From positions 1 through 64,000 of the IMG/VR virus record IMGVR_UViG_3300014152_000001: 64,000 nucleotides of DNA, one strand, 5' to 3'. How positions within the stretch are numbered: position 1 is the stretch's first letter; each line of letters starts with the position of its first letter. Shown one piece after another: positions 4,486-62,300 of the stretch. The notes beneath the pieces are model-generated. The model was not told where the DNA came from. It saw only the letters and a list, made by a program, of their open reading frames with translations, and ran no database searches. Position numbers and translations under genes: made by a program. The DNA is from a virus.

Positions 4486-5830
4486 ATTTAATGGAGTCGA
4501 GATTCATCACCTTTATTTGTTCTACATAAGTCTTAGCCTGCTCGATGACATCATCCACAATCTTCTCCAAGTCGCCCACCATCAGAATCTCCACTGCGGC
4601 CAATCTGGGTAGGTTGTCCACTAGAGCGCAGTTCAAAGCCCCACCCCGAATGTGAGGAAAGGAGTGAGCGTAGTGCGCCTTGAGAAAGGACGAGACCTCT
4701 ATTATCTCACAATCCTCAATCTCTTCAAAAAGACCTCTCTCATATACGGGTGTGTTGCAGAAGTCTCGAACCTTGTGATTGAACCAGAACTTCCTCAGAG
4801 TCAGGGTTATCCTCTCTTCTAAGGCTCGATAGTCGTCAATCAATCCCTTATGCAAGTCGCTGTCGTATCCCATGTCCTGTAGTGGAGCATAGTCTCCATA
4901 GGCCAGAATACCGAACCTTCTTCCCATTGCGTAACTATTTCTACAGAGGAAGCCTAGAATATCTCTAAAGACCGATACATGGGTTCCTTGGAGAGCGAGA
5001 GGATTGGCCGTCACAACGAAGGGACACGCACCTGTCACCGATAGAGTTGTGCCACCGCCAGCCACCGTTGCCCTTCCCGATTCTAAGAATCCTAGCAGGA
5101 ATCCGGCCATGTTTTCCACCGTCTGGCTCTCAATCTGGTCTATCGCAAGCGGATAGTATTGCTCATGGAACAACCCATAAGCCTTATCGTCAGTCCACTT
5201 GGCCGACCCTAGAAGGGTGTTCTTGGTGGCCTTGTCAATCAATCTGCCAGCCAACTCGAAGAAGGTGCTCTTGCCAGTGTTAGGCGGAGTAATCTGTAAT
5301 TCGTGGGGCTGATACCTCATGACATAGCCTCTCGGTAGGGTGGCTCTGTTAGCCAGAACCAGAGCAGGGTCTCTTGTGCAGTTGTATTCCATGATGCCTT
5401 TGATGAGATTGTTATACTCTTCGGTAGGTTTGTCTGCAATAGCATCGAACCACTTGCCCAAAGTAATGTCATTGAACTGATAGTCCGTCCCAAAAACATA
5501 CATCCCCAAGTCATTCCATTCTTCTAGCCTTGGGTCGCCTCTCTGAATCTTGTTCATGATGTAGCCCTGTTCCTTCAATTCAAAGATAACATCTAAATCC
5601 TTAATAGTCATCTCAGTTAGAGGTAGGGCAGACTTCTTGCTATGGATAACGCTTTTAGTATCTACGATGTAGATAGGCGGAGTTATCACTGTTGGGTAAG
5701 CCCGATAGAGTTTGGCTCCTACGGTGATGAGGATTCCATTGTCGGTCTTCTCCATCTCAGACTTCTGATAGACGGGTTCGATTTGCTCAAAAGAATTGAG
5801 CACTTTGTTCTCAGACATTGGTTTCATCAC
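4472..5830 (-). CDS. MCM-like AAA+ ATPase, probable replicative helicase (start likely 5818)
   Basis: PPNTGKST Walker A, LAIDQIE Walker B variant, VVTANP sensor, RRF arginine finger. Confidence 0.7.
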   Translation of the reverse strand: MMKPMSENKVLNSFEQIEPVYQKSEMEKTDNGILITVGAKLYRAYPTVITPPIYIVDTKSVIHSKKSALPLTEMTIKDLDVIFELKEQGYIMNKIQRGDPRLEEWNDLGMYVFGTDYQFNDITLGKWFDAIADKPTEEYNNLIKGIMEYNCTRDPALVLANRATLPRGYVMRYQPHELQITPPNTGKSTFFELAGRLIDKATKNTLLGSAKWTDDKAYGLFHEQYYPLAIDQIESQTVENMAGFLLGFLESGRATVAGGGTTLSVTGACPFVVTANPLALQGTHVSVFRDILGFLCRNSYAMGRRFGILAYGDYAPLQDMGYDSDLHKGLIDDYRALEERITLTLRKFWFNHKVRDFCNTPVYERGLFEEIEDCEIIEVSSFLKAHYAHSFPHIRGGALNCALVDNLPRLAAVEILMVGDLEKIVDDVIEQAKTYVEQIKVMNLDSIKYAIT

Positions 5831-5990
5831 TCTCTATTGGGGCTATTAAGGATTGTGTTCTTGACCTCGCCCTTATCAACTCACGCCAATTGGCAAGGGT
5901 TCTCAGTATTCGCTCATCTTCGGCTGTATCGGGAAAGCCCTGTGTAAGTTCGATTATTCTATTGGCTAAACAGGGATACAGTATCTCCAT
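5811..5990 (-). CDS. 59-aa mini-protein with MCP-like N-terminal segment (not in ORF track)
   Basis: MEILYPCLANRIIELTQ vs MCP 16-30 LFYPALAKRIVELTM; own promoter aatccttattaa on minus strand at ~6013-6024. Confidence 0.75.
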   Translation of the reverse strand: MEILYPCLANRIIELTQGFPDTAEDERILRTLANWRELIRARSRTQSLIAPIESDETNV

Positions 5991-6071
5991 TACCTATCTT
6001 GCGTGAGTAAGGTTAATAAGGATTCTCACTCGTAAGCATTTAAATAGGCCAATTACGCAGGGTATAGTAGC

Positions 6072-6749
6072 ATGGCAGAACCAGAAGGAGAGAAGGAACC
6101 AGTCGAGAAGCCGACAAAAGAGGCACTCGAAGACCTTTATCCAGATGTGGATATGCCCCACCTTCAGGCCGTCATCCAACTTCTTTACCACACGGCCAAC
6201 GAGATTGACGACATTGAGAGCATAGACGCTACTCCCTATGTGACAGTCTATGTAGGTGGCGAAGAGTGGTTCGTTATGAACGACAGCGAGGCTGATGGGT
6301 ATGCTGAAGAGAGTGCAGAAGAGTTGTTTGATGAGATGGAAATGGATGCGTTGCCCGGAGACTGGCCCGACTTCATAATGAACAAAGATGAGTTCGATTC
6401 GGCTTTATCCGAAGCCATTCAAAACTACATTGAGACCGCTAGAGAGGAGCCGTCTAACGACCCTACAACCTACGATAGCAAACTAGACGAGGAGATGGCC
6501 GGAGCCAATACCGCCTCAGAACAGGAGTTCGAGGATTATCTCACTACTCAATGGGTTCCAGACGGAGACGTTATCCAGTGGTTCATCAACGAATATGGTC
6601 ACGAAGCCTTTAAAGAGACGGCCAATGTTGATGCTACAGCCCTCGCCAAGCACATCATGGAAACGGAAGGAAGAGGTTCTATCATCGCATCCCATGATGG
6701 AGAAGAGATTGACCTTGGTAAAGGTTACTACGGCTATCGTCTGAGTTAA
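6072..6749 (+). CDS. Highly acidic protein, possible DNA mimic
   Basis: Very D/E-rich; C-terminal GRGSIIASHDGEE..YYGYRL. Confidence 0.6.
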   Translation: MAEPEGEKEPVEKPTKEALEDLYPDVDMPHLQAVIQLLYHTANEIDDIESIDATPYVTVYVGGEEWFVMNDSEADGYAEESAEELFDEMEMDALPGDWPDFIMNKDEFDSALSEAIQNYIETAREEPSNDPTTYDSKLDEEMAGANTASEQEFEDYLTTQWVPDGDVIQWFINEYGHEAFKETANVDATALAKHIMETEGRGSIIASHDGEEIDLGKGYYGYRLS

Positions 6750-6787
6750 GCCGAGAATCCTTATAAGTCGAGAGTTCCCATTGATGT

Positions 6788-7183
6788 ATGAGAACTTTGA
6801 CCAGAGAAGATAAACTAAAGTATCTCAAGACCTACAGAGAAACGCATAGGAGAGAGCGTTATCTCTACAATCGAGAATACTTCCACAAGTTGAAACTTAC
6901 GGTTCTTACCCATTATTCTGGAACCAATCCACCCCAATGTGCCAATCCTTATGGAGAGCACAAAGAACCATACACTAACATAAAGGCTCTCTCAATAGAC
7001 CATATCAACGGTGGTGGGAATAAGCATAGGAAGACCATTGGTTGGAGTCTCTACTATTGGCTTATTGCCCACAACTATCCCAAAGGCTTTCAGGTGCTTT
7101 GTATGAACTGCCAATTCATCAAGAAGTATGAAGAGGCTTACACAGAATCCTTAAATAGAATAGAGAGGAAGGGTATGATATGA
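6788..7183 (+). CDS. HNH-like endonuclease, paralog 2
   Basis: HYSGTNPPQCANP...SIDHINGGG...YYWL..NYPKGFQVLCMNCQ. Confidence 0.82.
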   Translation: MRTLTREDKLKYLKTYRETHRRERYLYNREYFHKLKLTVLTHYSGTNPPQCANPYGEHKEPYTNIKALSIDHINGGGNKHRKTIGWSLYYWLIAHNYPKGFQVLCMNCQFIKKYEEAYTESLNRIERKGMI

Positions 7184-8163
7184 CACGATTCTTAGAATTG
7201 GATGAGCCAATGATACCGTTCATTTGTATGGGAACCTGCGGCAAGAAGCAGGCCGGGAAGAGCCTCTACTCTCGTGAGTTAGGCTATAAAGTAGTCAAAG
7301 AAGAGGGGGGCGAGATTCTGTGGCTGTCCACAGAAGAGCCTACCGACTTCATGTTCACCACCGCAATAGAAGAGCACGAAGGATGGGATAAGGTCTTTGC
7401 CAAGAAGTATGGCATTGAACCAGTAATTCATTGGGAATGGTGCCCGACTGCCGAAGACATGATGCGCTTCATCGGAGTCGAAGGAAAGGTCATAATCACC
7501 GAAGCAAGCGTATCCACACCAAAGCCTCTAAAGGACATAAAAGGTGAGAGTGCAGAAGACAGAACCAAGAGAGAGGCCGAAGCAAAGAAGGCGGCAGAGG
7601 AGAAGCAGAAGGGTAGCACACTTGCGTTCAAGACCATCAAAGTGGACACCGACAACTCGCCCCTGCTTAAGATGCTCAAAGCATATGACATACGTTACAT
7701 TGTGGTTGACTCCTTCACCAATCCTTTTGACGAACTGATAAGCGGTGGGAGACAGAACTTCAACATCAGGGCGCAACTCGAAGAAACGTTCCTTAACACC
7801 ATGCAACGCCTAGTCACCAGATACGGTCAATCGGTCAAGAGGAACACCTATATCATGACCACCAACCACATCACCAACAACCCGACAGACCCCTTCACAG
7901 CCATGATGATTGAGAAGGAACTTCATGAGAAAGGTGGTGGGGCGGTAGGTTACAACCTCAAAGTCCTGTATGGCTTCAAGCCGAGACAAACGCCTCATGG
8001 TCTGAGAGAGGTCTGGGTGATGAGATTCCCCAATCTGCCGGACTACGGTAAGATGTATAACTTGCTCATCACCAATAAGGGCTTCACCAAGACAACGAAG
8101 GACGCACTGAAGGATGTGAAAGAGGAGCAAAAGGAAGAGAGAAAAGAAGCGAAAGAATCATGA
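7180..8163 (+). CDS. RecA/RadA-superfamily ATPase
   Basis: GKKQAGKS Walker A, WLSTEE, IVVDSF Walker B, TNH, KGG.AVGY. Confidence 0.8.
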   Translation: MTRFLELDEPMIPFICMGTCGKKQAGKSLYSRELGYKVVKEEGGEILWLSTEEPTDFMFTTAIEEHEGWDKVFAKKYGIEPVIHWEWCPTAEDMMRFIGVEGKVIITEASVSTPKPLKDIKGESAEDRTKREAEAKKAAEEKQKGSTLAFKTIKVDTDNSPLLKMLKAYDIRYIVVDSFTNPFDELISGGRQNFNIRAQLEETFLNTMQRLVTRYGQSVKRNTYIMTTNHITNNPTDPFTAMMIEKELHEKGGGAVGYNLKVLYGFKPRQTPHGLREVWVMRFPNLPDYGKMYNLLITNKGFTKTTKDALKDVKEEQKEERKEAKES

Positions 8164-8291
8164 GCGAGAGCAGGAAGCATACAATAAACTGCAAGGCTCT
8201 TCAACAGATGCTTGAGTCCGAAGGATATTGCAACACCCATATGTATAGAAAACAAACCAAGTGCGATTGTTGGTGTCATCACCATGATTGA
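8160..8291 (+). CDS. Small Cys/His-rich protein (43 aa)
   Basis: Manual translation MSESRKHTINCK...KCDCWCHHHD; ATGA overlap with upstream gene. Confidence 0.45.
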   Translation: MSESRKHTINCKALQQMLESEGYCNTHMYRKQTKCDCWCHHHD

Positions 8292-8694
8292 CAAGGCGAA
8301 ATTCAACACCGAGAATTTTAAGGCCCAGTTCAAGAAGGAAGGGAAATACACTGGCGAAGTCTACGAAGGCGGGAGCATGGGTGGTGGTTACGGGTATATA
8401 GCCCAACTCTTGCTTCATCCTGTAACAGATGGCCGAAACAGAATCCTATGGCTGATTTTGGCTCCCTATGCCGTAACTATCCTCAAATTGGATAGAGAGA
8501 AAGCCATAGCCTTGGTGCGAGAGTATCTGGAAGCCTGTAATGAACTCAACCCCTGCCAAAGTGTGCTCGATAAGGTGGAACAGTATGTGGACAATGCGGC
8601 AAACGTAGAGAACGGATTAAAGCCGCCTCACTTGGATACTCTCCAACAGAGCGACCCCGAATTATACGACATTGTGATGGGTGCAATCACTTGA
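8284..8694 (+). CDS. priX: Primase non-catalytic subunit PriX-like
   Basis: P..DGRNRILWLILAPY....K.....A...V.EYL..CN...KPP.L..L...DPELY matches the PriX pattern. Confidence 0.75.
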   Translation: MIDKAKFNTENFKAQFKKEGKYTGEVYEGGSMGGGYGYIAQLLLHPVTDGRNRILWLILAPYAVTILKLDREKAIALVREYLEACNELNPCQSVLDKVEQYVDNAANVENGLKPPHLDTLQQSDPELYDIVMGAIT

Positions 8695-8912
8695 GCAAAG
8701 AAGAGGCATGGTGGAGAAAGTTTCCCAAGGAAACCTACGAGTATCCAGAGGAGGTACTGGAAGGAACCATCGTCATGGAGTATCTGAACTCAAAAGGAGA
8801 AGTTGTGATGAGTCAGCCCTGTTTTGCTTTTGCCAAATGGTCTCGGATTTGGAGTGACATAGACTACAACATCAGAGATGGGATGCTGGCTCTGTTTGGT
8901 GAGAAAGAATGA
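8691..8912 (+). CDS. Hypothetical protein
   Basis: Overlap-coupled ORF in the replication operon. Confidence 0.55.
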   Translation: MSKEEAWWRKFPKETYEYPEEVLEGTIVMEYLNSKGEVVMSQPCFAFAKWSRIWSDIDYNIRDGMLALFGEKE

Positions 8913-9067
8913 AACTAGCCAATCAAGAAGAGTTGAATAAGGCAAGAGGCTCACAGATAAGTGGCTTCGTTTCCTACGATGCACTATATGATATGATTAC
9001 TATTCCAAGTTGTGTCTATGGAATGAGGCCAATTCACGTTTCAAGAGAGGCGATTGAAGATTGGTAG
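8909..9067 (+). CDS. 52-aa mini-protein resembling MCP residues 80-104 (not in ORF track)
   Basis: YDMITIPSCVYGMRPIHVSREAIEDW vs YDSITVTPYKVGMR-VRVTRELIEDQ; overlaps both neighbouring genes. Confidence 0.75.
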   Translation: MKLANQEELNKARGSQISGFVSYDALYDMITIPSCVYGMRPIHVSREAIEDW

Positions 9068-11169
9068 TTCCTTTCGATTCGGCCACCTATACCACACAGA
9101 ATGGTAAGGTCAAGATGAAGGTCTATAGGAATGGAGAGGTCGAACTCATAGACCCTGACCCCATGCCTTATTGCTATGCGCCAGCCAAATACGAAATCCA
9201 GACACAAGCCAAGATGACGAGGACAGATATGAGGACTTTCGATACAGGAGAGAGCGTGAAGAGATACACCTTTCCACAACCTATGAACGTAAAGGCGTTC
9301 CGCACTTGGCAAGAGGGCAAGGGCATTCCCGTCTATGAAGCCGACAAAAAGTATGTGGGAGTTTGGATGGCAGACAACGGGTTCGTATGCGATGACTATC
9401 CCAACCAAGCCTCATGGGACACAGAAGAGGACGACTCCAAGTCCAAGCCCGACCCAGAGACGGCCAACGTTCCGATAACGGCTATAGGCATAGTCTATAA
9501 GGGACAGAAGTATGCGTGGACGGGCATCGAGAAAGAGATTCTTAAGGGAGCAGTAGACTTCATAGCAGAGAACAAGATTACTATGTTGAAGGGATGGAAC
9601 ACCCACTTCTGGGACGTTCCCTTCTTTTCCAAGAGGCTGGCTTACGCAGGCATCAAGTTCGACTTTAGTTCCGTCAGATTCCTAGACCTAGCCCTCTGCT
9701 ATCGTTTCATGGAGAAGAACTTCAGGAGCCAGTGGTCGCTGGAGAAGGTGGGTAGGAGATTGCTCAATGAGCAAAAGCCCTTCGTCAACACTAGACTCAG
9801 CACCCTGCCGCCAGAGCAACTAAAGGAGAGAGTCCTGTGGGATGCGAAAATGACGGAGAAGATAGACGCTAAGAAGGGATATACCGGAGTGGCCATACAA
9901 CTGGCCAAGCAGGGTCATATCTTTCCAGACCAGATATTTGGAATCCATCCCATCAAGAAATCCATCACCATCACCCCCGTCCTAGACCAATACTTCTTGA
10001 AGTATGCCCACAAGATTAACTATGTCTTGCCTTGCAAGTCGGGATATAAGCAGAGGCCCAAATATACAGGAGCATGGGTCGAAGTCTTCGAGCAGGGGTT
10101 CTTTGAAGATGTGCTACAGTTCGATGTGGACTCCCTGTATCCCAACATCATCCTAGCGTATAAGTTGGCCCCGTTGGGTAGGTTCGACTTGGTTGAACCC
10201 ATCGTCAGAGACCTGCTTGCTGGCAAGAGGAACGCCAAAGACGAGGTAGAGAGATGGGCATATAAGATTACCGTCAATGCCTTATACGGTCTCTTCGCCA
10301 GTTCCTATTACCGATTCAAGGCCGTAGAAGTGGCAGACAGTATAACCTATCACGGCAGAGACATAGTTACCCATACAGCAGAGTTTCTAAGAAGTATGGG
10401 TTATACGGTCTACTACATAGATACGGACTCCTGCTTCGTGAAGGGCAAATTCGGTGAAGCAGAGACCATAAGAGACATGATGAACTCTTATGTGGCCAAG
10501 ACATACAATGTAGATAACATCAAATTCGGGATGGAGAACCATTGGAGTCTGCTCGGATTCCCAAGGGGGGCCAAGGGCGAGAAGACCAAGAAGCGTTACT
10601 ATGGTATAGTCCATGTCAACAAGAAAGGTGAAGTGGTGGACAAGTTTGAAGAGGCTGGCATGGAAGGCTTGCGTGGGGATTGGTGTGAGTTGGCGAGGAA
10701 CGTGCAAGACACCATAAAGAGGTTCCAAGTCACCAAAGTCCCGAAGGAGAAGATGGTGGAGTTCTATGAGGATACAAAAGTCAGACTCTACAAGGGACTT
10801 TACGACCCCCTTCTGGTCATGGAGAAACATATGGGGAAGGATGTCTCAGAGTATGGTCAGATGAAGAAGGACGAGAAGACGGGAAAGATGCGGAAGATGC
10901 CTACCCCACAACACGTTAAGGCTTTACGAGATGCGATGGAACATGGGTGGGTTCCCAGTGATATGGTCCAATATGGTGTGGTCCAATACTATATGTGCAG
11001 AGGAGCCATACCCAAACTGGTCAATCTAGTAAGGCTGGGTGAGATAGACTATGCTTGGTATTGCTCCCATCAGATAGACCCCATAGTTTGGCGATTGGGA
11101 ATAATCGAACAGATGAGCAAATATAAGAAGGAGAAGGTTATAGCGGAAGACCAGTCTACCTTAGACTAA
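9061..11169 (+). CDS. polB: Family B DNA polymerase
   Basis: Exo motifs WDTEE and GWN..FWD.PF; DVDSLYPNI, KITVNALYG, YIDTDS. Confidence 0.96.
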   Translation: MVVPFDSATYTTQNGKVKMKVYRNGEVELIDPDPMPYCYAPAKYEIQTQAKMTRTDMRTFDTGESVKRYTFPQPMNVKAFRTWQEGKGIPVYEADKKYVGVWMADNGFVCDDYPNQASWDTEEDDSKSKPDPETANVPITAIGIVYKGQKYAWTGIEKEILKGAVDFIAENKITMLKGWNTHFWDVPFFSKRLAYAGIKFDFSSVRFLDLALCYRFMEKNFRSQWSLEKVGRRLLNEQKPFVNTRLSTLPPEQLKERVLWDAKMTEKIDAKKGYTGVAIQLAKQGHIFPDQIFGIHPIKKSITITPVLDQYFLKYAHKINYVLPCKSGYKQRPKYTGAWVEVFEQGFFEDVLQFDVDSLYPNIILAYKLAPLGRFDLVEPIVRDLLAGKRNAKDEVERWAYKITVNALYGLFASSYYRFKAVEVADSITYHGRDIVTHTAEFLRSMGYTVYYIDTDSCFVKGKFGEAETIRDMMNSYVAKTYNVDNIKFGMENHWSLLGFPRGAKGEKTKKRYYGIVHVNKKGEVVDKFEEAGMEGLRGDWCELARNVQDTIKRFQVTKVPKEKMVEFYEDTKVRLYKGLYDPLLVMEKHMGKDVSEYGQMKKDEKTGKMRKMPTPQHVKALRDAMEHGWVPSDMVQYGVVQYYMCRGAIPKLVNLVRLGEIDYAWYCSHQIDPIVWRLGIIEQMSKYKKEKVIAEDQSTLD

Positions 11170-11560
11170 ATATTCGTTTTTTCCATTGACAATTCCAACA
11201 CAAGTCTTGGAATCCAGAGGGAAAGTTATTTCTCTTGAGCCAAAGATAGAATGAACTACCATATCCAATCGTTTTACGTTCTTTTGTTCCACCATCATTG
11301 ATGTGGTCTACAGTAAGACAATCTATATCGGTAAGCATGGGGTCATTAGGTAAATGCAAATGAAAAGGGTCTGCACAAACTGGATATGGCTTAGTAGAGT
11401 AATGTGTAAGGACTTCAACTTTCAGGTCGTGCCTCTCTTTCCGAGTTTTGAGATTGGCTTCCTTCTTATGCTTACTATACCATGTTTTGAAATATCCTCT
11501 CCATTTGCTTCTATTTTTCTCATAGTAATCCTTATGATAGTTAGAATCCATAGAAGTCAC
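11156..11560 (-). CDS. HNH-like endonuclease, paralog 3
   Basis: TVDHINDGG...FYLWLKRNNFPSGFQDLCWNCQ. Confidence 0.82.
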   Translation of the reverse strand: MTSMDSNYHKDYYEKNRSKWRGYFKTWYSKHKKEANLKTRKERHDLKVEVLTHYSTKPYPVCADPFHLHLPNDPMLTDIDCLTVDHINDGGTKERKTIGYGSSFYLWLKRNNFPSGFQDLCWNCQWKKRIFSLR

Positions 11561-25938: not shown

Positions 25939-26373
25939 TCATAAATACTGATTATGAAGTTCTGTGTTCTTGAAACGTTTTACAAATTGACAATTCATGC
26001 AAAGCACCTGATAGCCAGTTGGATAGTTATTGGCTCGAAGCCATGTGTAGAATGCCCATCCCCCATGTTTATTTAACTTGCTTCTCTCTTTACCACCTTT
26101 TCCATTAATATGGTCTATCGAGAGAGCCAGAATGTTTGTATAGGGCTTTTCGTGCTCACCGAATGGGTTGACACATTGGGGTGGGTCTGTGCCAGAATAG
26201 TAGGAAAAGACATCATGTTTCAACTTACTCTTAGACCGCACAACTGCTTCTCTATTGTAGAGCCTAACCTTGGCTCGATTGGTAGAATAGTATTCTCTTT
26301 CCTTTAGCCTTATTTCTTCTCTATGCTTTACACGATAGCGTCTATTACGTTCTAACTTCTTAGCGTCATTCAT
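25939..26373 (-). CDS. HNH-like endonuclease, paralog 4
   Basis: YSGTDPPQCVNPFGEH...SIDHING...YQVLCMNCQ. Confidence 0.82.
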   Translation of the reverse strand: MNDAKKLERNRRYRVKHREEIRLKEREYYSTNRAKVRLYNREAVVRSKSKLKHDVFSYYSGTDPPQCVNPFGEHEKPYTNILALSIDHINGKGGKERSKLNKHGGWAFYTWLRANNYPTGYQVLCMNCQFVKRFKNTELHNQYL

Positions 26374-35004: not shown

Positions 35005-35415
35005 ATGCCATATAAGAATCCAGAAGATAAGAAGGCTTGGTTTCAACGAAACAAAACCAGAATGGAAGAGAAGTCTCGTATTTGGAAAAGGACTCACAAA
35101 TCGTCAATCAACAAAAGCAATAATAAGAGTCGAAAGAAGTTACGTCTTAAAGTATTGATTCATTATTCTGGAACAGACCCGCCCCAATGCGTTAATCCTT
35201 TCAATTTGCATCTTCCTAACGACCCATTTCTCACAGACCTCAGAGTTCTCTCTATTGACCATATTAATGGTGGTGGACGAAAGGACAGAAGAGAAGGCAA
35301 AAGCGGTTCCTTGTTCTACTATTGGCTTCAGAGAAACAACTTCCCAAAGGGCTTTCAAGTGCTCTGTATGAATTGCCAGTATGTGAAGAGAGAACTTAAT
35401 AAGGAGCACAACTAA
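35005..35415 (+). CDS. HNH-like endonuclease, paralog 5
   Basis: SIDHINGGG...YYWLQRNNFPKGFQVLCMNCQ. Confidence 0.82.
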   Translation: MPYKNPEDKKAWFQRNKTRMEEKSRIWKRTHKSSINKSNNKSRKKLRLKVLIHYSGTDPPQCVNPFNLHLPNDPFLTDLRVLSIDHINGGGRKDRREGKSGSLFYYWLQRNNFPKGFQVLCMNCQYVKRELNKEHN

Positions 35416-35942: not shown

Positions 35943-36332
35943 GTGTCAGCACAAAAGAGATACTACCAAAATCACAAAACCGCAATGCTACAGAAGAGTA
36001 AAGACTACTATTGGAGCCACAAACCAAAAATACAAAGGGAACAAAAAGAGTATCGGGAGCAAGTTCGTATACAAGTTTTTACTCATTATGGCGGCAATCC
36101 ACCCAAATGCGCTTGTTGTGGGGAGAGCAGAATCGAGTTTCTCACTATAGACCACATCAACAACGATGGTGCAAATCAACGGAGACGTATATGGGGCCAG
36201 AAAGTATCTGGTTTTGGATTCTATGCGTGGTTAGTTAGAATGAACTTTCCTGAAGGCTATCAAGTTTTATGTTTCAACTGCAACTGTGGCAGAGCACATA
36301 CTTTAAATAAGGTATGCCCTCATAAACAGTAG
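35943..36332 (+). CDS. HNH-like endonuclease, paralog 6
   Basis: CACCGE..IEFLTIDHINNDG...YQVLCFNCN..CPH. Confidence 0.82.
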   Translation: MSAQKRYYQNHKTAMLQKSKDYYWSHKPKIQREQKEYREQVRIQVFTHYGGNPPKCACCGESRIEFLTIDHINNDGANQRRRIWGQKVSGFGFYAWLVRMNFPEGYQVLCFNCNCGRAHTLNKVCPHKQ

Positions 36333-36333
36333 A

Positions 36334-36399
36334 ATGGTCACGCGAGAACAGGTTCCTATCGTCAATACAGGAGCATTATTCTATCCCGGAGTAGGTTGA
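36334..36399 (+). CDS. 21-aa micropeptide copying the MCP N-terminus (not in ORF track)
   Basis: MVTREQVPIVNTGALFYPGVG vs MCP MAMTREQFPIVNTGALFYPAL; tttaaata at 36302-36309. Confidence 0.8.
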   Translation: MVTREQVPIVNTGALFYPGVG

Positions 36400-36866
36400 G
36401 ATTTACGCTTTCGTAAGGCTTCTTTCTTGAATTGACAATTCATACATAACACTTGGTATCCTTCTGGGTATCCTCTAACAAAGAGCCACCAATAGATGTT
36501 AATACCACCCCAATTCTTGGTCTTAGCCACTAATCTTCGCTCCTTTGCTCCATCATCATTGATATGGTCTATCGTAAGACAATCTACATCTGTAAACGGT
36601 TCTTTGTGCATTCCAAAAGGATTGGCACATTGAGACGGGTTAGTGCCAGAGTAATGAATCAACGTCTTAACTTTCATCTGATATTTGGCCTTCTTCCGAT
36701 TTGCGTTATACTTCTTTCTATGTTTTCTATAATATCCTCGTTCTCTATTATTTTTTGCAGACTGTTTTTTGTCGCACTCTTTACAGACCCGACTGTTGAT
36801 TCGCTTATGACATGGATACCAATTTTCATCGGCTAACAATATTCCACAGACACGGCAATTGGTCAT
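36381..36866 (-). CDS. HNH-like endonuclease, paralog 7
   Basis: N-terminal CRVC..CKEC; TIDHINDDG...YQVLCMNCQ. Confidence 0.82.
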   Translation of the reverse strand: MTNCRVCGILLADENWYPCHKRINSRVCKECDKKQSAKNNRERGYYRKHRKKYNANRKKAKYQMKVKTLIHYSGTNPSQCANPFGMHKEPFTDVDCLTIDHINDDGAKERRLVAKTKNWGGINIYWWLFVRGYPEGYQVLCMNCQFKKEALRKRKSQPTPG

Positions 36867-38428: not shown

Positions 38429-38857
38429 ATGGAATACAAAACTTCTGAAGAGAAGAGAGCCTACCAAGCAGACTACGCCAAAACACATAAGGAAGAGAAA
38501 CAGGCTTACGATAGGAAGTATTGGAAAATCCGTTATGCTAAAAATAGCAAGCAATACTTGGAAAACAGAGCGAAAGCGACAAGAGAACGGAAACTACTTG
38601 TCCTAAGTCATTACAGTAGTAATCCGCCCAAGTGTGCTTGTCCACCTTGCGGAGAGACCATTATCGAATTTCTCTCAATAGACCATATTATCCCTATTGG
38701 TAATAAAGCGAGAGACAATCAACTAGGCACGCGACACGGAAGCAATCTCTACGGCTGGCTCATTAGACACAACTTTCCAGAGGGCTTCCAAGTGCTCTGT
38801 ATGAATTGCAACTTCGCCAAAGGACACTACGATAAATGTCCTCACGAGAGACTGTAG
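38429..38857 (+). CDS. HNH-like endonuclease, paralog 8
   Basis: SIDHIIP...YGWL..HNFPEGFQVLCMNCN..CPH. Confidence 0.82.
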   Translation: MEYKTSEEKRAYQADYAKTHKEEKQAYDRKYWKIRYAKNSKQYLENRAKATRERKLLVLSHYSSNPPKCACPPCGETIIEFLSIDHIIPIGNKARDNQLGTRHGSNLYGWLIRHNFPEGFQVLCMNCNFAKGHYDKCPHERL

Positions 38858-53469: not shown

Positions 53470-54732
53470 TTGCTCCTCTGTATCATGAAGACAATGCCAG
53501 AACTCGTTCTTACAGCGGTAGTCAACCAACTTACCTCAACGGGTGGAACACTCACTCTCTCACCCACAACAGGGCTAGGAGTTGTAGATGTATCCATTGC
53601 TCTTGCCCATGCTAATACTTGGTCTGGGTCACAGACATTCTATAGTTCGGGCCTGCTTCTCAATAATCCTGCTAATACCTTTGCCTACACCTTTGTAGGG
53701 GCGGCTATTGCGGCAAGTCACAACATCACTCTTCCTCTCTTAACTGGAAGCGACACTATGGCTGTGCTAGGGTTTGCTCAAACTTGGACTGCGGCACAGA
53801 CCTTCTACAGTTCCGACTTCCTTATTAACAATCCTGCCAACACCTTTGCTTACACATTCGTAGGTGCGGCTATAGGCGCTTCACACGACATAACCCTACC
53901 ATTGCTTACTGGAAACGATACAATGGCCGTCTTAGGGTTTGCACAAACTTTCACTGCAACTCAGACCTTCCACGAGATAGACACTGCTACAGATGCTACC
54001 TATGCAATAGGAACGACAACCAATAGATGGACTTCAGTTCATGCTCAAAACTTCCAAGTAGAAGCCGCTTCAGGCGATGCCAACCCAACTGCCAAACTTA
54101 CTAATGGAGCACTCTACTTTGGTGCGGGTGGAGCAAGCGCATTGGACATTGAAATAAACCGCACAGGTTCGACAACCCTCACTATGACTGCTGGAACCTT
54201 TGCCTTTGGTAATACTGGTATCAGTATTGGTGGTGCGTCTTACGACATTACCAAAGTCACTGCATTAGCCACAGGAGACATTGTTTTCTATGACGGGACC
54301 AATTGGATTAACTTGGCGGTTGGAGTCAGCACCAGTTATGTGCTTGGAGTCAGTGCCGGAAAACCATCATGGGTAACTTTCTCAAGTCTTGGTGGTGTCT
54401 CTGCTCCTCAGAACATATACACTGAGTATGAACTTCCAGATGTGGCTTCACATAACATCGCCACCTACACGCCAAGTGCGGCAGGAAATCTTATGCTTAT
54501 GGTTTACTATAGAGTTACTGTGGGCGCAACTAATGTGACTCTTACTGCGACTTGGACAGACCAAGCAGGGGCGCAATCCTATTCATGGATGAGTGCCGTT
54601 TCAAACGCAACTGGTTCTTACTCAGTCCTGCCTTTGTTCATCAACAGTGCGGCTTCACAGCCAGTTACAATTGCGGCAACAGCCGGAACAGCAAACCAAG
54701 TCTACACAACTGCCTCAATAATGTTGATGTAA
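53470..54732 (+). CDS. Tail fibre protein A
   Basis: ANTW..QTF repeats, GDIVFYDGTNWINL; paralog of the next gene. Confidence 0.7.
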   Translation: MLLCIMKTMPELVLTAVVNQLTSTGGTLTLSPTTGLGVVDVSIALAHANTWSGSQTFYSSGLLLNNPANTFAYTFVGAAIAASHNITLPLLTGSDTMAVLGFAQTWTAAQTFYSSDFLINNPANTFAYTFVGAAIGASHDITLPLLTGNDTMAVLGFAQTFTATQTFHEIDTATDATYAIGTTTNRWTSVHAQNFQVEAASGDANPTAKLTNGALYFGAGGASALDIEINRTGSTTLTMTAGTFAFGNTGISIGGASYDITKVTALATGDIVFYDGTNWINLAVGVSTSYVLGVSAGKPSWVTFSSLGGVSAPQNIYTEYELPDVASHNIATYTPSAAGNLMLMVYYRVTVGATNVTLTATWTDQAGAQSYSWMSAVSNATGSYSVLPLFINSAASQPVTIAATAGTANQVYTTASIMLM

Positions 54733-54733
54733 A

Positions 54734-56176
54734 TTGGGTATTTTACATCGGAGGACCAAGAAGAAGGATGCTACGTTAGTGTTGCCCGTCCTTAAACATG
54801 AATATTACCCTACTGGTGGCCTCAGTGCTGAAGCCCTCTACGCAGTCACTCAACTTACTTCTACAGGTGGTTCTCTTACTCTCTCGCCTACAACCGGAAT
54901 AGGAGTAGTAGATGTTAGTCACAATCTCAGTCACGCCAACACTTGGATTGCTACCCAAGCCTTCGGGAATACCTACCTAAGTCTGGGTGGGGCCACATTC
55001 GATATAACCAAGAACACTGCGTTGGCTACAGGAGACATCATCATCTACGATGGAACCAACTGGATTAATCTGGCGGTGGGCACTGGAAGTCAAGTGCTTG
55101 GAGTAAGCGGTGGAATCCCAACATGGGAAGCCGTGCCAGCAACAGCAGGAGTCACATCATTGGGCGGTGTGACGGGGGCCATAACTCTGAGTTCTGGGCT
55201 TTCAATGGCGGCTTCTGTTCTAACAGTTACCTTCCCAACTGTTGTTACCTCTTTTGCGACAAAGACAGGAGCCATTACATTAGGTTCAGGACTCTCAATG
55301 TCCAGCAACGAATTAGACGTTACTTTTCCAACTGTAGTCACAAGTTTTGCTACTAAGACAGGAGCGATTACACTAGGCTCAGGTCTTTCAATGTCGAGCA
55401 ACGAATTAGATGTTACATTCCCAACTGTAGTGACCTCATTGGGCGCACAAACGGGAGCCATTACTCTAAGTTCGGGACTTTCAATGGTAGGGTCTGTTCT
55501 TACGGTGACATTTCCAACTGTTGTCACCTCAATAGATTCATTGACTGGAGCAGTGACTACATCAAGTCCAAACAGCACTCTATCTCTTAGCACGACATCT
55601 CAGAATAGGAACTTTGACATCAATCTTGGCAACGCCAACAGTTGGACTGGCGTTCAGTCTTTTGGTAATACCTACCTAAGTTTGGGCGGAAAAGCATTCG
55701 ACATCACTAAGAACACTGTGTTGGCTACAGGAGACATCATTTTCTATGATGGAACCAACTGGATTAACTTGGCGGTTGGGGCCAGTGCCAGTTATGTGCT
55801 TGGAGTCAGCGGTGGTCTACCAGCATGGGTTGTAGGTAGCAATCCTCTTGTAGCGAGTGCTAAAGAAACCAAGTTAACAACTACAGGTGCTACCAACGTA
55901 ATCAATTACACTACAGTCGCGGCTGGAAACTATGCCGTCAATGTATACTTCAGAGTCGTCACTGGGGCTACCGTAGTAACGCTTACTTACGTTTGGACAG
56001 ACGTTACCGGAGCGCAATCCTACACTTACCTCAGTGCCGTCTCAGAATCTACTGGCTCCTACACTATGCAACCACTCTTCTTCAATGCGACAAATAGCAG
56101 TGCCATCCAAGTCACTGCCACCGCTGGAACGGCCAACCAAGTGTATGTCTCAGCATCGGTGATATTAGAATCATGA
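54734..56176 (+). CDS. Tail fibre protein B
   Basis: VTS....TGAITL ~30-aa repeats; shares N- and C-terminal domains with fibre A. Confidence 0.7.
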   Translation: MGILHRRTKKKDATLVLPVLKHEYYPTGGLSAEALYAVTQLTSTGGSLTLSPTTGIGVVDVSHNLSHANTWIATQAFGNTYLSLGGATFDITKNTALATGDIIIYDGTNWINLAVGTGSQVLGVSGGIPTWEAVPATAGVTSLGGVTGAITLSSGLSMAASVLTVTFPTVVTSFATKTGAITLGSGLSMSSNELDVTFPTVVTSFATKTGAITLGSGLSMSSNELDVTFPTVVTSLGAQTGAITLSSGLSMVGSVLTVTFPTVVTSIDSLTGAVTTSSPNSTLSLSTTSQNRNFDINLGNANSWTGVQSFGNTYLSLGGKAFDITKNTVLATGDIIFYDGTNWINLAVGASASYVLGVSGGLPAWVVGSNPLVASAKETKLTTTGATNVINYTTVAAGNYAVNVYFRVVTGATVVTLTYVWTDVTGAQSYTYLSAVSESTGSYTMQPLFFNATNSSAIQVTATAGTANQVYVSASVILES

Positions 56177-58422
56177 CCAAGTTTGCTGATAACACTCTCT
56201 ATTATCTTCCTGTTACGCTGACTAACAGTGCAAGTGGGGCTACTTCGGCAAATCTTCAGGTTAAGATAACAGTCAACTCAAACACCTACAATTCTTATGA
56301 AGCCTCGAACCTAATTAATCTTAATTGGCAGGACGGTGCGGGAAACATCCTCAACTCTTGGCTCGAAAGCGGTTTGACGAATGCTTCGACTGCGAGTGTC
56401 TATTGGGTCAATCTCGGAAGCCTCACCATTGCAGGAAGCAATGGCACCTTAGTAATCTATCTGTGCTTTTACAACACATCAACAAACAATTTTAGTTCAG
56501 GAGGCACGACAGGCGCACAACCGAACTTCGATGGAACCTATGGTCATTATGATAACGGGTCTCAGGTCTTCGATTACTACACAGACTGGCCTAGCACAAG
56601 TCTTCCATCAGGATGGATTGTGGGCACAGGAACGGGCTCCAGCGTTAGCAATGGATTGATATTAACGTCTACCAGTGCAACTACTGAAGTATATTACAAC
56701 GTGGCAATCAACTCAAAAACTGAGATTCTTGAGGCTTACGAGTCAGCCATTGGGTCGGCCAACGCTGTCTATCCTCTTGGTCTAAGCACGACAGGTAACT
56801 CAGGCAACCCTTATGGTGCTTCCTCTGTTGCATGGGCCATGAGACTAAATGCTGTCAATGGAACTTGGGCTGAGTTCAATTGGAGTTCTGGTGCGTCAAA
56901 CGCAGTTGCCGATACAATTACAGGAGCCGTCAACACATACCATGTAATCTCTCTCTGGGAAAACGGCACGACTAACATCCAAGGACTCTACGATTACGCT
57001 AACGGGACGAGCAACGCTGTCGATTACGTTGCTGAAACCGTGCAATACATCTTCTTACAAATCAACGCCAATTCATCAACTGTGAATGTGGCATGGCTCA
57101 GATACCGTCAGGCTCCGCCTTCTTACACCGCACCAACATCAGCCTTTGGCTCAATAACAGTAGTTACTGTAATCCATTGGGTCGAACCAAGTCACACACA
57201 CGCAATAGCCGCACCCACGACAGGCTCAGGTCTATTAACACTGATTAACGGTGGCCTTGTTACAGGAGTATACATGGCTCTTGGTTCTCTCACCACCGCA
57301 CCCGGATTTACAAGTGTTGCGACTTCTGTAAGTGTAGGGTCTTCGATTCACACTCATACAATGAATGCGAGTGGAACGGCCTGTGCAAGTGGTGCTTGTA
57401 TAAGTAGCAATAACACTGCCGCGGCATCATCATCAACATCTGTTGCGGCCACAGCCAACTATACTAACTTTGTGACCGGAAGAAACTCAGATACAACTGG
57501 GACTTTTTGGTCAGGGGTTAACACCACAAGTGGAAGTCCAGTAACAGTCATACCTGTCAATACAGGTAACACCACTCAAACCTACGTTGCCTCTGTAACC
57601 TACGTTCTACCGATTCATACGCATTCAATAGCCGCGGCTACCACTGGAAGTATTCTAACTTCAGCAAGTGGAACTGGTAGTGCTACTGTTGTTACTGGCG
57701 GATGCGTATTTAACACCAATGGCTTTTTCACCACTTTCACAGGCACAACTGGAACGACCTCAACTCATACTCATACAGAAACGGGTGCTGGTAGTGCTTG
57801 CACCTTAGGAACTTGTGTTAATGCTGGAAACACAGGTTCTCCATCCGCCACAACAGCCATATTAGGCTCAAGTAACTCCACAAATTTTGTTACAACTATG
57901 ACCAGTGCTACCACTACAGGTGGTGTTAACACCGGAATATCAACAACCCCGGTAACGGTTGTAACAGCTATTCCTGCTTCAACAGGAAACAATACTCAGA
58001 CTGCCACTCTTCCTGTGCCCATCCACACTCATACGATAGGGGCGGCTGGCACTACCACATTCATTGCAACTGCAACCGCAGTCACTTCTACTGCTCTTAC
58101 ATCCGTTGGTTCCCTCGTCACTGGAACAGCCTGTGTAAACGGAATAAATAATACCGTAGTAGCAGGCAATAGTCATATTCATGCCCAAGGAGCCACTGGA
58201 AGCAGTTGCGTTGTAGGAACTTGTGTTAAAAATGGGGTAGATGTGACGGGTGCTCCATCTAACACGGTATCTGTTTGTTTTTCAGTCGCTACCACTTCTT
58301 CTACTCCCGCAACCAGTAGAAATTCAGATACTACTACCAGCGGCCTTACTAACACAAGTAATACTACTAAGAGTTGCGTTACCAGCATCCCTTCCACCAC
58401 AGGGGCGAATGTAACACCATGA
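56173..58422 (+). CDS. Fibre/adhesin: DUF2341-like N-domain plus three His-x-His repeats
   Basis: YYLPVTLTN...W.E.......YWV N-domain; periodic HTH motifs with C....C. Confidence 0.65.
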   Translation: MTKFADNTLYYLPVTLTNSASGATSANLQVKITVNSNTYNSYEASNLINLNWQDGAGNILNSWLESGLTNASTASVYWVNLGSLTIAGSNGTLVIYLCFYNTSTNNFSSGGTTGAQPNFDGTYGHYDNGSQVFDYYTDWPSTSLPSGWIVGTGTGSSVSNGLILTSTSATTEVYYNVAINSKTEILEAYESAIGSANAVYPLGLSTTGNSGNPYGASSVAWAMRLNAVNGTWAEFNWSSGASNAVADTITGAVNTYHVISLWENGTTNIQGLYDYANGTSNAVDYVAETVQYIFLQINANSSTVNVAWLRYRQAPPSYTAPTSAFGSITVVTVIHWVEPSHTHAIAAPTTGSGLLTLINGGLVTGVYMALGSLTTAPGFTSVATSVSVGSSIHTHTMNASGTACASGACISSNNTAAASSSTSVAATANYTNFVTGRNSDTTGTFWSGVNTTSGSPVTVIPVNTGNTTQTYVASVTYVLPIHTHSIAAATTGSILTSASGTGSATVVTGGCVFNTNGFFTTFTGTTGTTSTHTHTETGAGSACTLGTCVNAGNTGSPSATTAILGSSNSTNFVTTMTSATTTGGVNTGISTTPVTVVTAIPASTGNNTQTATLPVPIHTHTIGAAGTTTFIATATAVTSTALTSVGSLVTGTACVNGINNTVVAGNSHIHAQGATGSSCVVGTCVKNGVDVTGAPSNTVSVCFSVATTSSTPATSRNSDTTTSGLTNTSNTTKSCVTSIPSTTGANVTP

Positions 58423-60373: not shown

Positions 60374-61324
60374 CTACAATGACCTTAGACCTGTTAATTG
60401 CACGACACTCTCCGGGTATGTGATAACCGGGGCATAGCGAGCAGTGATAACAATGTCTATCGAATCGAAAGTAGGTTGAGGCCAGACATCCACACTGATG
60501 GGTCTCTTCGTTGCGAAGTAACCCAACGGTGCATATGAGGCTGAATAGTTGCTACCAGCCGCGGCAAGGACGTATGCGCGTCCATCGAAGCCGCTGTTTG
60601 GTAACAGTGGAGCCTGTGGGATGTTCGGGGTGACTATCTGCTTCAGTCCATACAACTGAGGTGCTGAAACCACTGTTCCAGTTCCCTGAGCGTATACGGG
60701 CTGTCCGTAGAAGAGTAGGGCGGCAAACTGAGGTATCCTTGACAGGTCTTGATGAGCCATTGGGTTCATCGCAATCGTGTCAGGTTCCAAAGCAAGGTTC
60801 TGTATCACTTGCTTCGCCTGAGTTATGTCGTTAATCCCTATTGTTCCACCATACGCAGTTGTCGTCCCATCCATGAACACTGAAGCCCCTGTAACGGGCT
60901 GTGCGATGCCGTGACCAGCCGGGGCATTGAGTGCTTTCTCAACGTCTTGGTCGATGGTCATAACGACCCGTCTCGCGGCTCGTTTCAGTTGGTCTTCTAC
61001 AATGTTCACTATTTGGTCTTCAATCAACTCTCTAGTGACTCGGACTCTCATACCCACCTTGTAAGGTGTAACGGTAATCGAGTCGTAAGGTGTGAAGTCA
61101 GCCATAATCTCGGCTCCCTCTGCCGTCTTTCCTATGACGGCTGTAGCACGAGCACCCTTCTGCTTCGGTATCGAAGCAGTCGCTCCAACCTTGATGAAGA
61201 AGTCCTGAAGTAGAGGCTTCAATGCCAAGTTAGGCATTGTGAGTTCTACTATCCTCTTCGCCAGTGCTGGATAGAATAGAGCACCTGTGTTAACTATTGG
61301 GAACTGTTCACGAGTCATAGCCAT
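60374..61324 (-). CDS. Major capsid protein (HK97-fold)
   Basis: AEGAEI, K.G....VTRELIED, I..NDI..A...I, IAMNP, LYGL..IVTP.IP; follows protease/scaffold/cement genes. Confidence 0.9.
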   Translation of the reverse strand: MAMTREQFPIVNTGALFYPALAKRIVELTMPNLALKPLLQDFFIKVGATASIPKQKGARATAVIGKTAEGAEIMADFTPYDSITVTPYKVGMRVRVTRELIEDQIVNIVEDQLKRAARRVVMTIDQDVEKALNAPAGHGIAQPVTGASVFMDGTTTAYGGTIGINDITQAKQVIQNLALEPDTIAMNPMAHQDLSRIPQFAALLFYGQPVYAQGTGTVVSAPQLYGLKQIVTPNIPQAPLLPNSGFDGRAYVLAAAGSNYSASYAPLGYFATKRPISVDVWPQPTFDSIDIVITARYAPVITYPESVVQLTGLRSL

Positions 61325-61784: not shown

Positions 61785-62300
61785 TTAACCCGACAGTAGA
61801 CCCAGTTCCTTGAAGCGGCTTGAAGCACCTGTAATCTCCTTCCAGTAGTCTGGGAACTCCGCAGAGGCACCAAAGCCAGCGAGTGGACTCGTCTCTTCCT
61901 TGACCGCCCCAACGTTACCCTTTCCGGTAACTTCGGGAGCCTTGGCAGACGCTTCCCTTGCTTTCTTGGCTTCCTCTACCTTGCTCTTGACTTCCTGAAG
62001 TCTCGACTTCAGTTCTTCAAGTTTCTTGCGCTTAACTTCCTCTTCTTCCTTCTTTTTCTTTTGGGCTTCCTCGTTTTCCTCGCTCTTTGCTTCAGATGCT
62101 CTCCTCAAGGCAATCCTCTGAGACAGCAACGCGGCTCTTTTACCGCGAAGGTCTTGCTGTTCCAGTTTTATGTTGACTTCCTTGATGATGGACATCAGAC
62201 CATCGAGTTTGGATTCGAGAGAACCCATCTGCTTCACAATTTGGTCATAACTGAGAGCCTTGCCCTCAGATATATCACCAGAAGGTGCGACAGTAGACAT
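61785..62300 (-). CDS. Scaffolding protein
   Basis: Charged coiled coil between protease and capsid genes. Confidence 0.7.
   Translation of the reverse strand: MSTVAPSGDISEGKALSYDQIVKQMGSLESKLDGLMSIIKEVNIKLEQQDLRGKRAALLSQRIALRRASEAKSEENEEAQKKKKEEEEVKRKKLEELKSRLQEVKSKVEEAKKAREASAKAPEVTGKGNVGAVKEETSPLAGFGASAEFPDYWKEITGASSRFKELGLLSG

Follow-up and report, generated by a model that had tools for sequence, protein, structure and literature searches.

A small gene upstream of polB in an archaeal-type virus, its LANQ leader and the resemblance of its tail to a segment of the major capsid protein

Duplicated major capsid protein (MCP) genes have given rise to proteins acting on capsid assembly, such as the vertex protein gp24 of phage T4 and the capsid-size redirector Ccm of the SaPIs, both of which are full-length HK97 folds. 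Short stretches of an MCP can also have an activity of their own, as in the case of the Gol peptide, which belongs to the N-terminal region of gp23, the HK97-fold MCP of T4, and is recognized by the defense protease Lit. In archaeal-type viruses, to our knowledge, almost no small proteins have known roles. The internal proteins of phage T4 are characterized by a capsid-targeting sequence (CTS), which has been reviewed (PMC9026906, PMC7697877). Our literature searches yielded no description of micro-proteins consisting of MCP fragments, nor of the N-terminal LANQ leader dealt with below.

The DNA analyzed here is a stretch of 64,000 nucleotides (the window) taken from the start of G000, the complete record, 105,748 bp long and with direct terminal repeats, of an archaeal-type tailed virus that is uncultured. 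It contains a 52-residue open reading frame, ORF52, located immediately before the family-B DNA polymerase gene polB. A previous reading of the letters and the open reading frames (the sequence-only reading) had compared the tail of this protein with a segment of the HK97-type MCP encoded by the same virus. The features concerned are listed in Table 1.

Table 1. Positions of the features discussed, in the numbering of the window unless another genome is named
Feature	Position	Strand	Remarks
ORF52 (52 aa, ATG start)	8909..9067	+	Very probably a real, selected small gene
LANQ leader, ORF52 residues 1-13	8909..8947	+	x-L-A-N-Q-x-E-L-[ND]-x-A
ORF52 C block, residues 26-52 (strand and helix start)	8984..9064	+	MCP-like; invariant C35, G38, H43, R46, E47, I49
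Upstream 73-aa ORF	8691..8912	+	Overlaps ORF52 by 4 nt (ATGA)
PriX-like protein	8212-8694		PF18689, 6.6e-10
polB, family-B DNA polymerase	9061..11169	+	PF00136 7.5e-26, phrog_262 6.7e-33
TATA-like box	6039..6046	+	Likely promoter of the operon 6072-11169 containing ORF52
59-aa ORF	5811..5990	-	N-terminus resembles MCP N-arm helix (MCP 16-29) and P0006 middle block
MCP, HK97-type, 316 aa	60374-61324	-	PF25209 1.8e-10, PF05065 2.8e-9, phrog_1650 8.8e-15
MCP residues 78-105, segment resembled by the C block	61010..61093	-	Inside MCP gene 60374-61324
21-aa ORF copying MCP residues 3-21	36334..36399	+	15/19 identical; between two convergent HNH genes
HNH genes	943-1461, 6788-7183, 11156-11560, 25939-26373, 35005-35415, 35943-36332, 36381-36866, 38429-38857		
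LANQ ORFs, G000	8909 (window); 72722, 97885, 98275, 98468		
LANQ ORFs, G001	994, 23707, 26487, 41025, 41556, 41741		
LANQ ORFs, G003	221, 6053, 6869, 36776, 39488, 52198, 54673, 54855		
MCP paralog and upstream ORFs, G002	G002 87524-90284	-	L018, L050

ORF52 as a gene of the replication operon

The sequence-only reading had described ORF52 as overlapping both of its neighbors, and this is indeed the case: the overlap amounts to 4 nt with the 73-aa ORF upstream, for which no family match was found in Pfam or PHROGs, and the stop codon of ORF52 overlaps polB by 7 nt (TTGGTAG) if the polymerase begins at the TTG codon at 9061. This start is credible, since the 18 residues preceding the first ATG (PFDSATYTTQNGKVK) have been kept in the relatives, via synonymous changes in L001 and at the protein level in L002/L007. 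The exact ORF52 protein is carried by four contigs of the public collection. In the closest relative (L001/G001), the polB of which is 92% identical, a 49-aa homolog occupies the same slot and again forms part of a chain of ATGA overlaps. The two small proteins are 55% identical with an intact reading frame, and the dN/dS ratio is 0.26 at a dS of 1.55, as compared with 0.07 in the case of polB and 0.13-0.15 in that of the RadA-like and PriX-like neighbors in the same relative. ORF52 is under purifying selection, and we are very confident that it is a real, selected gene. The residues conserved in G001 number 8 out of 13 in the leader, 1 out of 11 in the middle part and 17 out of 25 in the C block.

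ORF52 has homologs in another five clusters or loci. Protein searches, both exhaustive and word-based, yielded P0003 and P0007 (both 49 aa), P0006 (92 aa) and P0008 (44 aa), the latter having a C block that looks frameshifted, and two more short contigs carrying the long form were found on scanning metagenomes. Residues M1, L3, N5, Q6, L9, C35, G38, H43, R46, E47, and I49 are invariant in the family (alignment A1). No fused longer forms of the family were found, which is weak evidence. The absence of the ORF from close relatives had been named beforehand as an observation that would count against the capsid reading of ORF52: the gene is present in the closest relative, G001, but missing in the complete relatives G002 and G003, and among the viral contigs, that of G001 alone holds a member of the family. 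The ORF52 family is small and its distribution is patchy.

The archaeal TATA motif TTTAWATA occurs 35 times in the window versus 3.2 times expected (an 11-fold enrichment), and most of these boxes are located 20-30 nt before start codons, which points to archaeal-type promoters and to largely leaderless first genes. The box at 6039-6046 is the sole plus-strand copy between this position and polB, and the genes from 6072 to 11169 either overlap or are separated by short gaps. Judging from the spacing and the TATA boxes, ORF52 is probably transcribed from this promoter together with the RadA-like, PriX-like, and polB genes, and it is in this inferential sense that the co-expression with polB proposed previously holds. 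The only genome match of the viral uS2-like gene was a Bathyarchaeota MAG (32% identity, a weak pointer), which makes an archaeal host likely. In G002, nothing lies between the PriX-like gene and polB, while this slot contains two LANQ ORFs of the Zn-ribbon kind in G003 and small ORFs numbering three in G001 and two in G000. It is a variable accessory slot.

Resemblance of the ORF52 tail to the capsid protein

The MCP segment resembled by the C block, residues 78-105, is nearly invariant across 10 MCPs. Residues 66-125 of the MCP align with residues 158-217 of the solved HK97 gp5-like MCP 8qpq, although weakly (E 0.1), and the sole long helix predicted in the protein, the spine helix in a low-confidence model, extends from residue 98 to 132. 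Since residue 98 is the start of this helix, MCP 80-97 would be the strand leading into the spine helix and MCP 98-104 would form its first turns. On this basis, the E-loop/P-domain placement suggested in the sequence-only reading holds. The AlphaFold2 models, with a pLDDT of 31 in the case of the MCP (10 sequences) and of 51 in that of P0006, were too poor for mapping or for a fold search, and the ESM Atlas gave no usable match.

When ORF52 is compared with the MCP on its own, the resemblance is marginal. The pattern GMR...V.RE had been said to be identical in the two proteins: it fits ORF52, but a regular expression finds ORF52 only, since the MCP reads GMR..V.RE, and a one-residue gap after GMR is therefore needed. 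With this gap, 13 of 25 residues are identical between ORF52 and MCP 80-103. The echo of MCP GAEI claimed for the upstream GSQI corresponds to two identical residues out of four and requires a further 3-residue indel, and is hence weak. Pairwise shuffling gave a p of ~3e-5 to 2e-4, and tblastn inside the window gave E-values of 0.004 with ORF52 and 0.17 with the MCP as the query, no match being reported under the default composition-corrected settings. The pair ranks 93rd among all the ORF pairs of the window, beside several plainly accidental matches 24-25 residues long, and ORF52 matches the MCP-family HMM with an E-value of 1.6. At the DNA level, 43 of 75 nt (57%) are identical and 6 of the 13 identical residues use the same codon, so that the nucleotides are no more alike than the protein match would entail; a DNA-level repeat or a recent duplication was rejected on account of this nucleotide identity and the mixed codons. 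In Pfam and PHROGs, no capsid family was found at E<=0.01 in the case of ORF52 or at E<=10 in that of the six family members. With its 52 residues, ORF52 does not have a complete HK97 fold (N-arm, E-loop, P domain with spine helix, and A domain; ~250-400 aa) and represents at most one strand and two helical turns of it.

The picture at the level of the family was obtained with an HMM built from the homologs only, the ORF52 of the window being left out. Among 1147 six-frame ORFs, the MCP of the window was the top non-family match (E 1.1e-4, 17.7 bits), and the next match had an E-value of ~1. In a wider set of 9418 six-frame ORFs from the four genomes G000-G003, the C-terminal half of the HMM matched just three MCPs (G000, G002, and G003; E 6e-4 to 1.2e-3) and one 154-aa ORF of G002, which begins with the C block and was found with an E-value of 4.8e-4 using the family HMM. 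In a decoy control on 21 shuffled or reversed databases, the top decoy reached 12.8 bits versus 16.7 bits in the case of the MCP, and dropping ORF52 from the profile raised the MCP score from 13.8 to 16.7-18.3 bits. A match with a capsid profile, which had been proposed as a check, was obtained with hhalign: columns 29-57 of the family alignment A1 correspond to residues 78-105 in the alignment of ten MCPs (A2), with an E-value of 6.8e-5 and a probability of 63%. The family HMM score declines with the distance of the MCP (11.6 bits with L038, ~4 bits with L042/L043, and 7.5 bits with the G002 paralog), as would be expected if the family arose recently inside the clade, and equally in the case of a winner's-curse accident.

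The gene of P0006, the long form of the family, was found on L012 and L014, after polB and before the gene of the MCM-like helicase. Between the leader and the C block, P0006 carries GAIFYPCLSEEIVAAT, which can be compared with GALFYPALAKRIVELT at MCP residues 14-29, and its alignment with MCP 10-105 consists of two colinear blocks (BLASTP E 9e-6 in a single comparison). The middle 44 residues, from which both the leader and the C block are excluded, have nothing in common with ORF52, and the five best matches of this middle part among the 9418 ORFs were an N-terminal fragment of the G003 MCP, three MCPs, and the 59-aa ORF of the window. In the reverse search with the MCP HMM, the ten best non-MCP matches were all MCP-like pieces; the E-values were 0.002 for P0006 (two colinear domains), 0.034 for P0007, 1.6 for ORF52, and 3.6 for the G001 homolog. 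The fact that the N-arm helix of the MCP (MCP 10-29) is copied in the long relatives as well, in the same order as in the MCP, suggests that the family originated from a 5' fragment of the MCP gene, and we think it probable that the tail of ORF52 descends from the MCP in this way. The likeness to the MCP is a property of the ORF52 family, and this is the principal finding: the match is significant at the family level, where local homology with the part of this virus's MCP comprising the E-loop return strand and the spine-helix start is credible, and it is marginal in the case of ORF52 alone. The family-invariant residues C35 and H43 are not MCP residues.

Two other similarities were encountered. 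PF16780 (AIMP2_LysRS_bd), the metazoan family of the AIMP2 peptide binding lysyl-tRNA synthetase, gave weak matches in three of the six family members (best E 1.1e-4), based on the 15-residue motif PTC.Y..P.[IV]H, the carriers of which include P0006 and L001 5626-5772. This match, in which P0006 scores 12.3 bits versus a curated cut-off of 27 bits, is almost certainly a coincidence, and the E-values of short motifs must be regarded as fragile since this match reaches 1.1e-4. Over their best stretches of 23-25 residues, the MBG-repeat proteins P0002 and P0004 share 44-48% of their residues with P0001. The kinship with MBG repeats (E 3.5e-9 in the exhaustive search) was also discarded, because this E-value is the sum of six repeats and the match is specific to P0001: the best single-repeat score was 4-5.5 bits, and only ~0-1 bit was left once P0001, the query, had been removed from the profile, the reverse of what was seen with the MCP.

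LANQ leaders and capsid-gene pieces in the clade

The LANQ leader, which makes up the N-terminal quarter of ORF52 and had been overlooked in the sequence-only reading of this ORF, is a module separate from the MCP-like tail. The N-terminus of ORF52, MKLANQEEL, contains the signature x-[LI]-A-N-Q-x-x-L within the first 8 residues, as required in our definition of LANQ. The [LI]ANQ..L pattern is present in 17 strict copies in G000, G001, and G003, all at the N-termini of ORFs of at least 30 aa, while none were found in G002 or with reversed or permuted controls; with the LANE variants of two further G001 ORFs, there are 17-19 leader ORFs in all. The first 18 columns of the family HMM also match many small ORFs. 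LANQ is conserved at the peptide level, since the Leu, Ala, Asn, and Gln codons vary freely. The downstream parts of the LANQ ORFs are unrelated, and several of them are Zn-ribbon-like. The sequences following the leader showed no cut motif that recurred, and a candidate protease was weakly identified (phrog_4523, E 1.9e-4). ORF52 is the one gene carrying both clade-wide patterns, the LANQ leader and the MCP fragment. In the slot between the RadA-like and PriX-like genes, G001 has a 51-aa LANQ-type ORF (L001 4910-5065), and the window has a different, Cys/His-rich ORF of 43 aa (8160-8291, plus strand) with a possible decayed remnant of the leader in another frame (QEAYNKLQGS).

Other pieces of the MCP are dispersed in these genomes. 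The 21-aa ORF of the window copying MCP residues 3-21 was detected by tblastn with E-values of 4e-5 to 7e-5 (1.3e-4 on the whole genome) and by the MCP HMM with an E-value of 1e-3, which shows that 5' fragments of the MCP gene do disperse in this genome. An equivalent fragment lies directly upstream of an HNH gene in G001 (L017 1501-1554), and G003 contains a decayed stretch resembling MCP 10-53, with stop codons inside. The second MCP paralog of G002 (303 aa) has lost much of the A-domain region and is 53-63% identical at both ends. Two genes upstream of this paralog, an N-block-like ORF and a C-block ORF adjoin each other: the 136-aa ORF starts with an N-arm-like peptide (EMVYPVLSKEIM..GFP) and the 154-aa ORF with a C-block-like peptide (YVTV..GYCHQRIHVSRELIEES), both being followed by a Cys-rich, Zn-ribbon-like sequence. 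In the case of the 59-aa ORF of the window, each of the matches is marginal when taken singly (E 0.05-0.4), and G001 has not conserved the ORF, which has the look of a mosaic or relic. This ORF is located upstream of the MCM-like helicase gene, and has both an MCP N-arm-like start (ILYPCLANRIIELT) and, further inside, a LANQ-like stretch (TLANWRELIRAR), for which there is a match, SLANFRELVRAR, at G000 67774-67809.

At least eight HNH endonuclease paralogs, 30-53% identical to each other, are scattered throughout the window, and the virus has about nine. It is plausible that these endonucleases drive the dispersal of gene fragments. The window also contains a tandem duplication consisting of two adjacent large plus-strand ORFs (53470-54732 and 54734-56176), which are 39% identical over 451 residues (E 5e-79) and both weakly similar to 56173-58422.

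Possible origin and role of ORF52 and comparison with known systems

The explanation we favor, tentatively and with somewhat less than even confidence when it is taken as a whole, is that ORF52 is a selected accessory mosaic protein consisting of a LANQ leader and an MCP-derived tail, with capsid docking as its supposed mode of action. ORF52 would be translated as a 52-residue accessory protein of the replication operon, maintained by selection and composed of two modules separated by a variable linker. The LANQ leader would presumably be an address or a docking helix for one common partner, and residues 26-52 would be a diverged copy of MCP 78-105, comprising the E-loop return strand and the spine helix as far as its second turn. 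Most likely, a 5' fragment of the MCP gene was captured behind a LANQ leader and was later trimmed by deletions, and the MCP-derived tail may then have gained its own invariant Cys and His residues. The MCP-like strand and helix might bind the partner of that segment in head assembly, either a neighboring MCP subunit or the scaffold (61785-62300), in which case ORF52 would be a small peptide acting in docking or competition, and might link the LANQ partner to the capsid protein. Taken by itself, a capsid-related docking or mimic function is conceivable rather than probable; the position of the gene among those for replication does not link it directly to head assembly.

A more general proposal, which we consider very unlikely, is that the clade uses short peptides copied from its own MCP (from the N-arm helix, and from the E-loop strand plus the beginning of the spine helix) as portable docking tags. 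These tags would be found singly or in combination, following the LANQ leader, or heading Zn-ribbon proteins; non-structural proteins might thereby be placed on capsids, assembly might be disturbed, or host sensors recognizing the MCP might be blunted. ORF52 would then be the minimal form, with two tags and no cargo, and might act as an early adaptor or competitor peptide made along with the replisome.

The resemblance to the MCP might also be due to chance. ORF52 might be an ordinary LANQ-leader protein, the conserved C-terminal motif of which, C.YGM..IHVSRE.IE, looks like the MCP strand/helix junction without being related to it by origin: the statistics obtained with the single sequence are marginal (E 0.17 and 1.6; pair rank 93), an equally "significant" but biologically absurd match with AIMP2_LysRS_bd exists, the likeness between P0001 and the MBG repeats (44-48% over 23-25 residues) vanishes without P0001, the score decays against more distant MCPs, and the invariant C35 and H43 are absent from the MCP. 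The improvement of the MCP match once ORF52 leaves the profile (13.8 to 16.7-18.3 bits) argues against such an accident, as does the fact that 21 database-equivalents of decoys included none reaching the MCP score. The long form, moreover, has an independent second block matching the MCP N-arm in colinear order, and both blocks recur in adjacent G002 genes beside the MCP paralog. We therefore regard a chance resemblance as unlikely. We find it somewhat less unlikely that the tail is an MCP-derived relic with no role at the capsid, kept either mainly because its translation brings ribosomes to the weak TTG start of polB, termination at ORF52 being coupled with reinitiation, or for an unrelated early function exerted through the LANQ leader. 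The overlap between the ORF52 stop and the TTG start speaks for this idea, and so do the chains of overlapping small ORFs, differing in content, in the PriX-like/polB slot of every relative with inserts, the patchy distribution of the family with one copy apparently frameshifted, and the lack of conservation, even in G001, of the 59-aa N-block ORF. On the other hand, the C block is the best-conserved part at saturated synonymous divergence, which suggests that the peptide sequence matters, beyond the act of translation; the polB gene of G002 has an ATG and needs no upstream ORF, and G002 has the same C block at the start of a different protein.

The leader could also be taken for a capsid-targeting sequence of the T4 type, ORF52 being a small cargo loaded into the head, since one N-terminal peptide common to 17-19 unrelated small proteins is the pattern known in T4. 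The LANQ ORFs are nevertheless situated in replication or early-looking regions, outside the head module, there is no evident protease cut motif after the leader, and the match of the candidate protease to phrog_4523 (E 1.9e-4) is weak, which leaves this possibility highly improbable. We give practically no credence to the idea that ORF52 is an N-terminal extension of polB produced by a programmed -1 frameshift, even though polB overlaps ORF52 and is read in the -1 frame with respect to it: positions 9040-9067 contain no slippery heptamer, the RNA structure at the junction is not unusual (z -0.84) and has no Rfam match, and polB has its own conserved N-terminus and directly follows the PriX-like gene in G002. 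The frameshift fusion was rejected on the grounds of the missing heptamer and RNA fold and the conserved N-terminus of polB, and an RNA element at the junction was rejected in view of the z value and the Rfam result.

If the tail of ORF52 does descend from the capsid gene and is under selection, the virus would have a micro-protein drawn from its own structural protein and expressed with the replication genes. This would provide a testable route to capsid mimicry, the timing of assembly, and the exclusion of related viruses in archaeal-type viruses. ORF52 joins two genome-wide patterns of the clade, the dispersed MCP fragments and the LANQ leader on unrelated small proteins; if the resemblance were due to chance, it would be one more small accessory ORF in a variable slot.

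The LANQ proteins resemble the T4 internal proteins in that a short N-terminal peptide is common to otherwise unrelated small proteins and the content of the same genomic slots varies. They differ in that the LANQ.EL peptide is not that of the CTS, no cleavage motif is recognized, the genes belong to replication or early regions, and the virus is of the archaeal type. As regards gp24 and Ccm, a full MCP paralog is also present in this clade, in G002, whereas ORF52 keeps just a 27-residue MCP-like piece. The Gol peptide is likewise a short piece from the N-terminal region of an HK97-fold MCP, but it is part of the MCP itself, whereas ORF52 is a separate gene. Unlike the HK97-fold MCPs (PF05065/PF25209; 8qpq), which have ~300 residues, the members of the ORF52 family have 52 or 92 and lack the A and P domains, and ORF52 has its own invariant Cys and His and is located in a replication operon. 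What ORF52 and its relatives share with these capsid proteins is the C block, which aligns with the conserved V.RE.IED region, where the E-loop return strand is followed by the start of the spine helix, and, in the long-form relative, the N-arm helix motif FYP.L..[IV]V.
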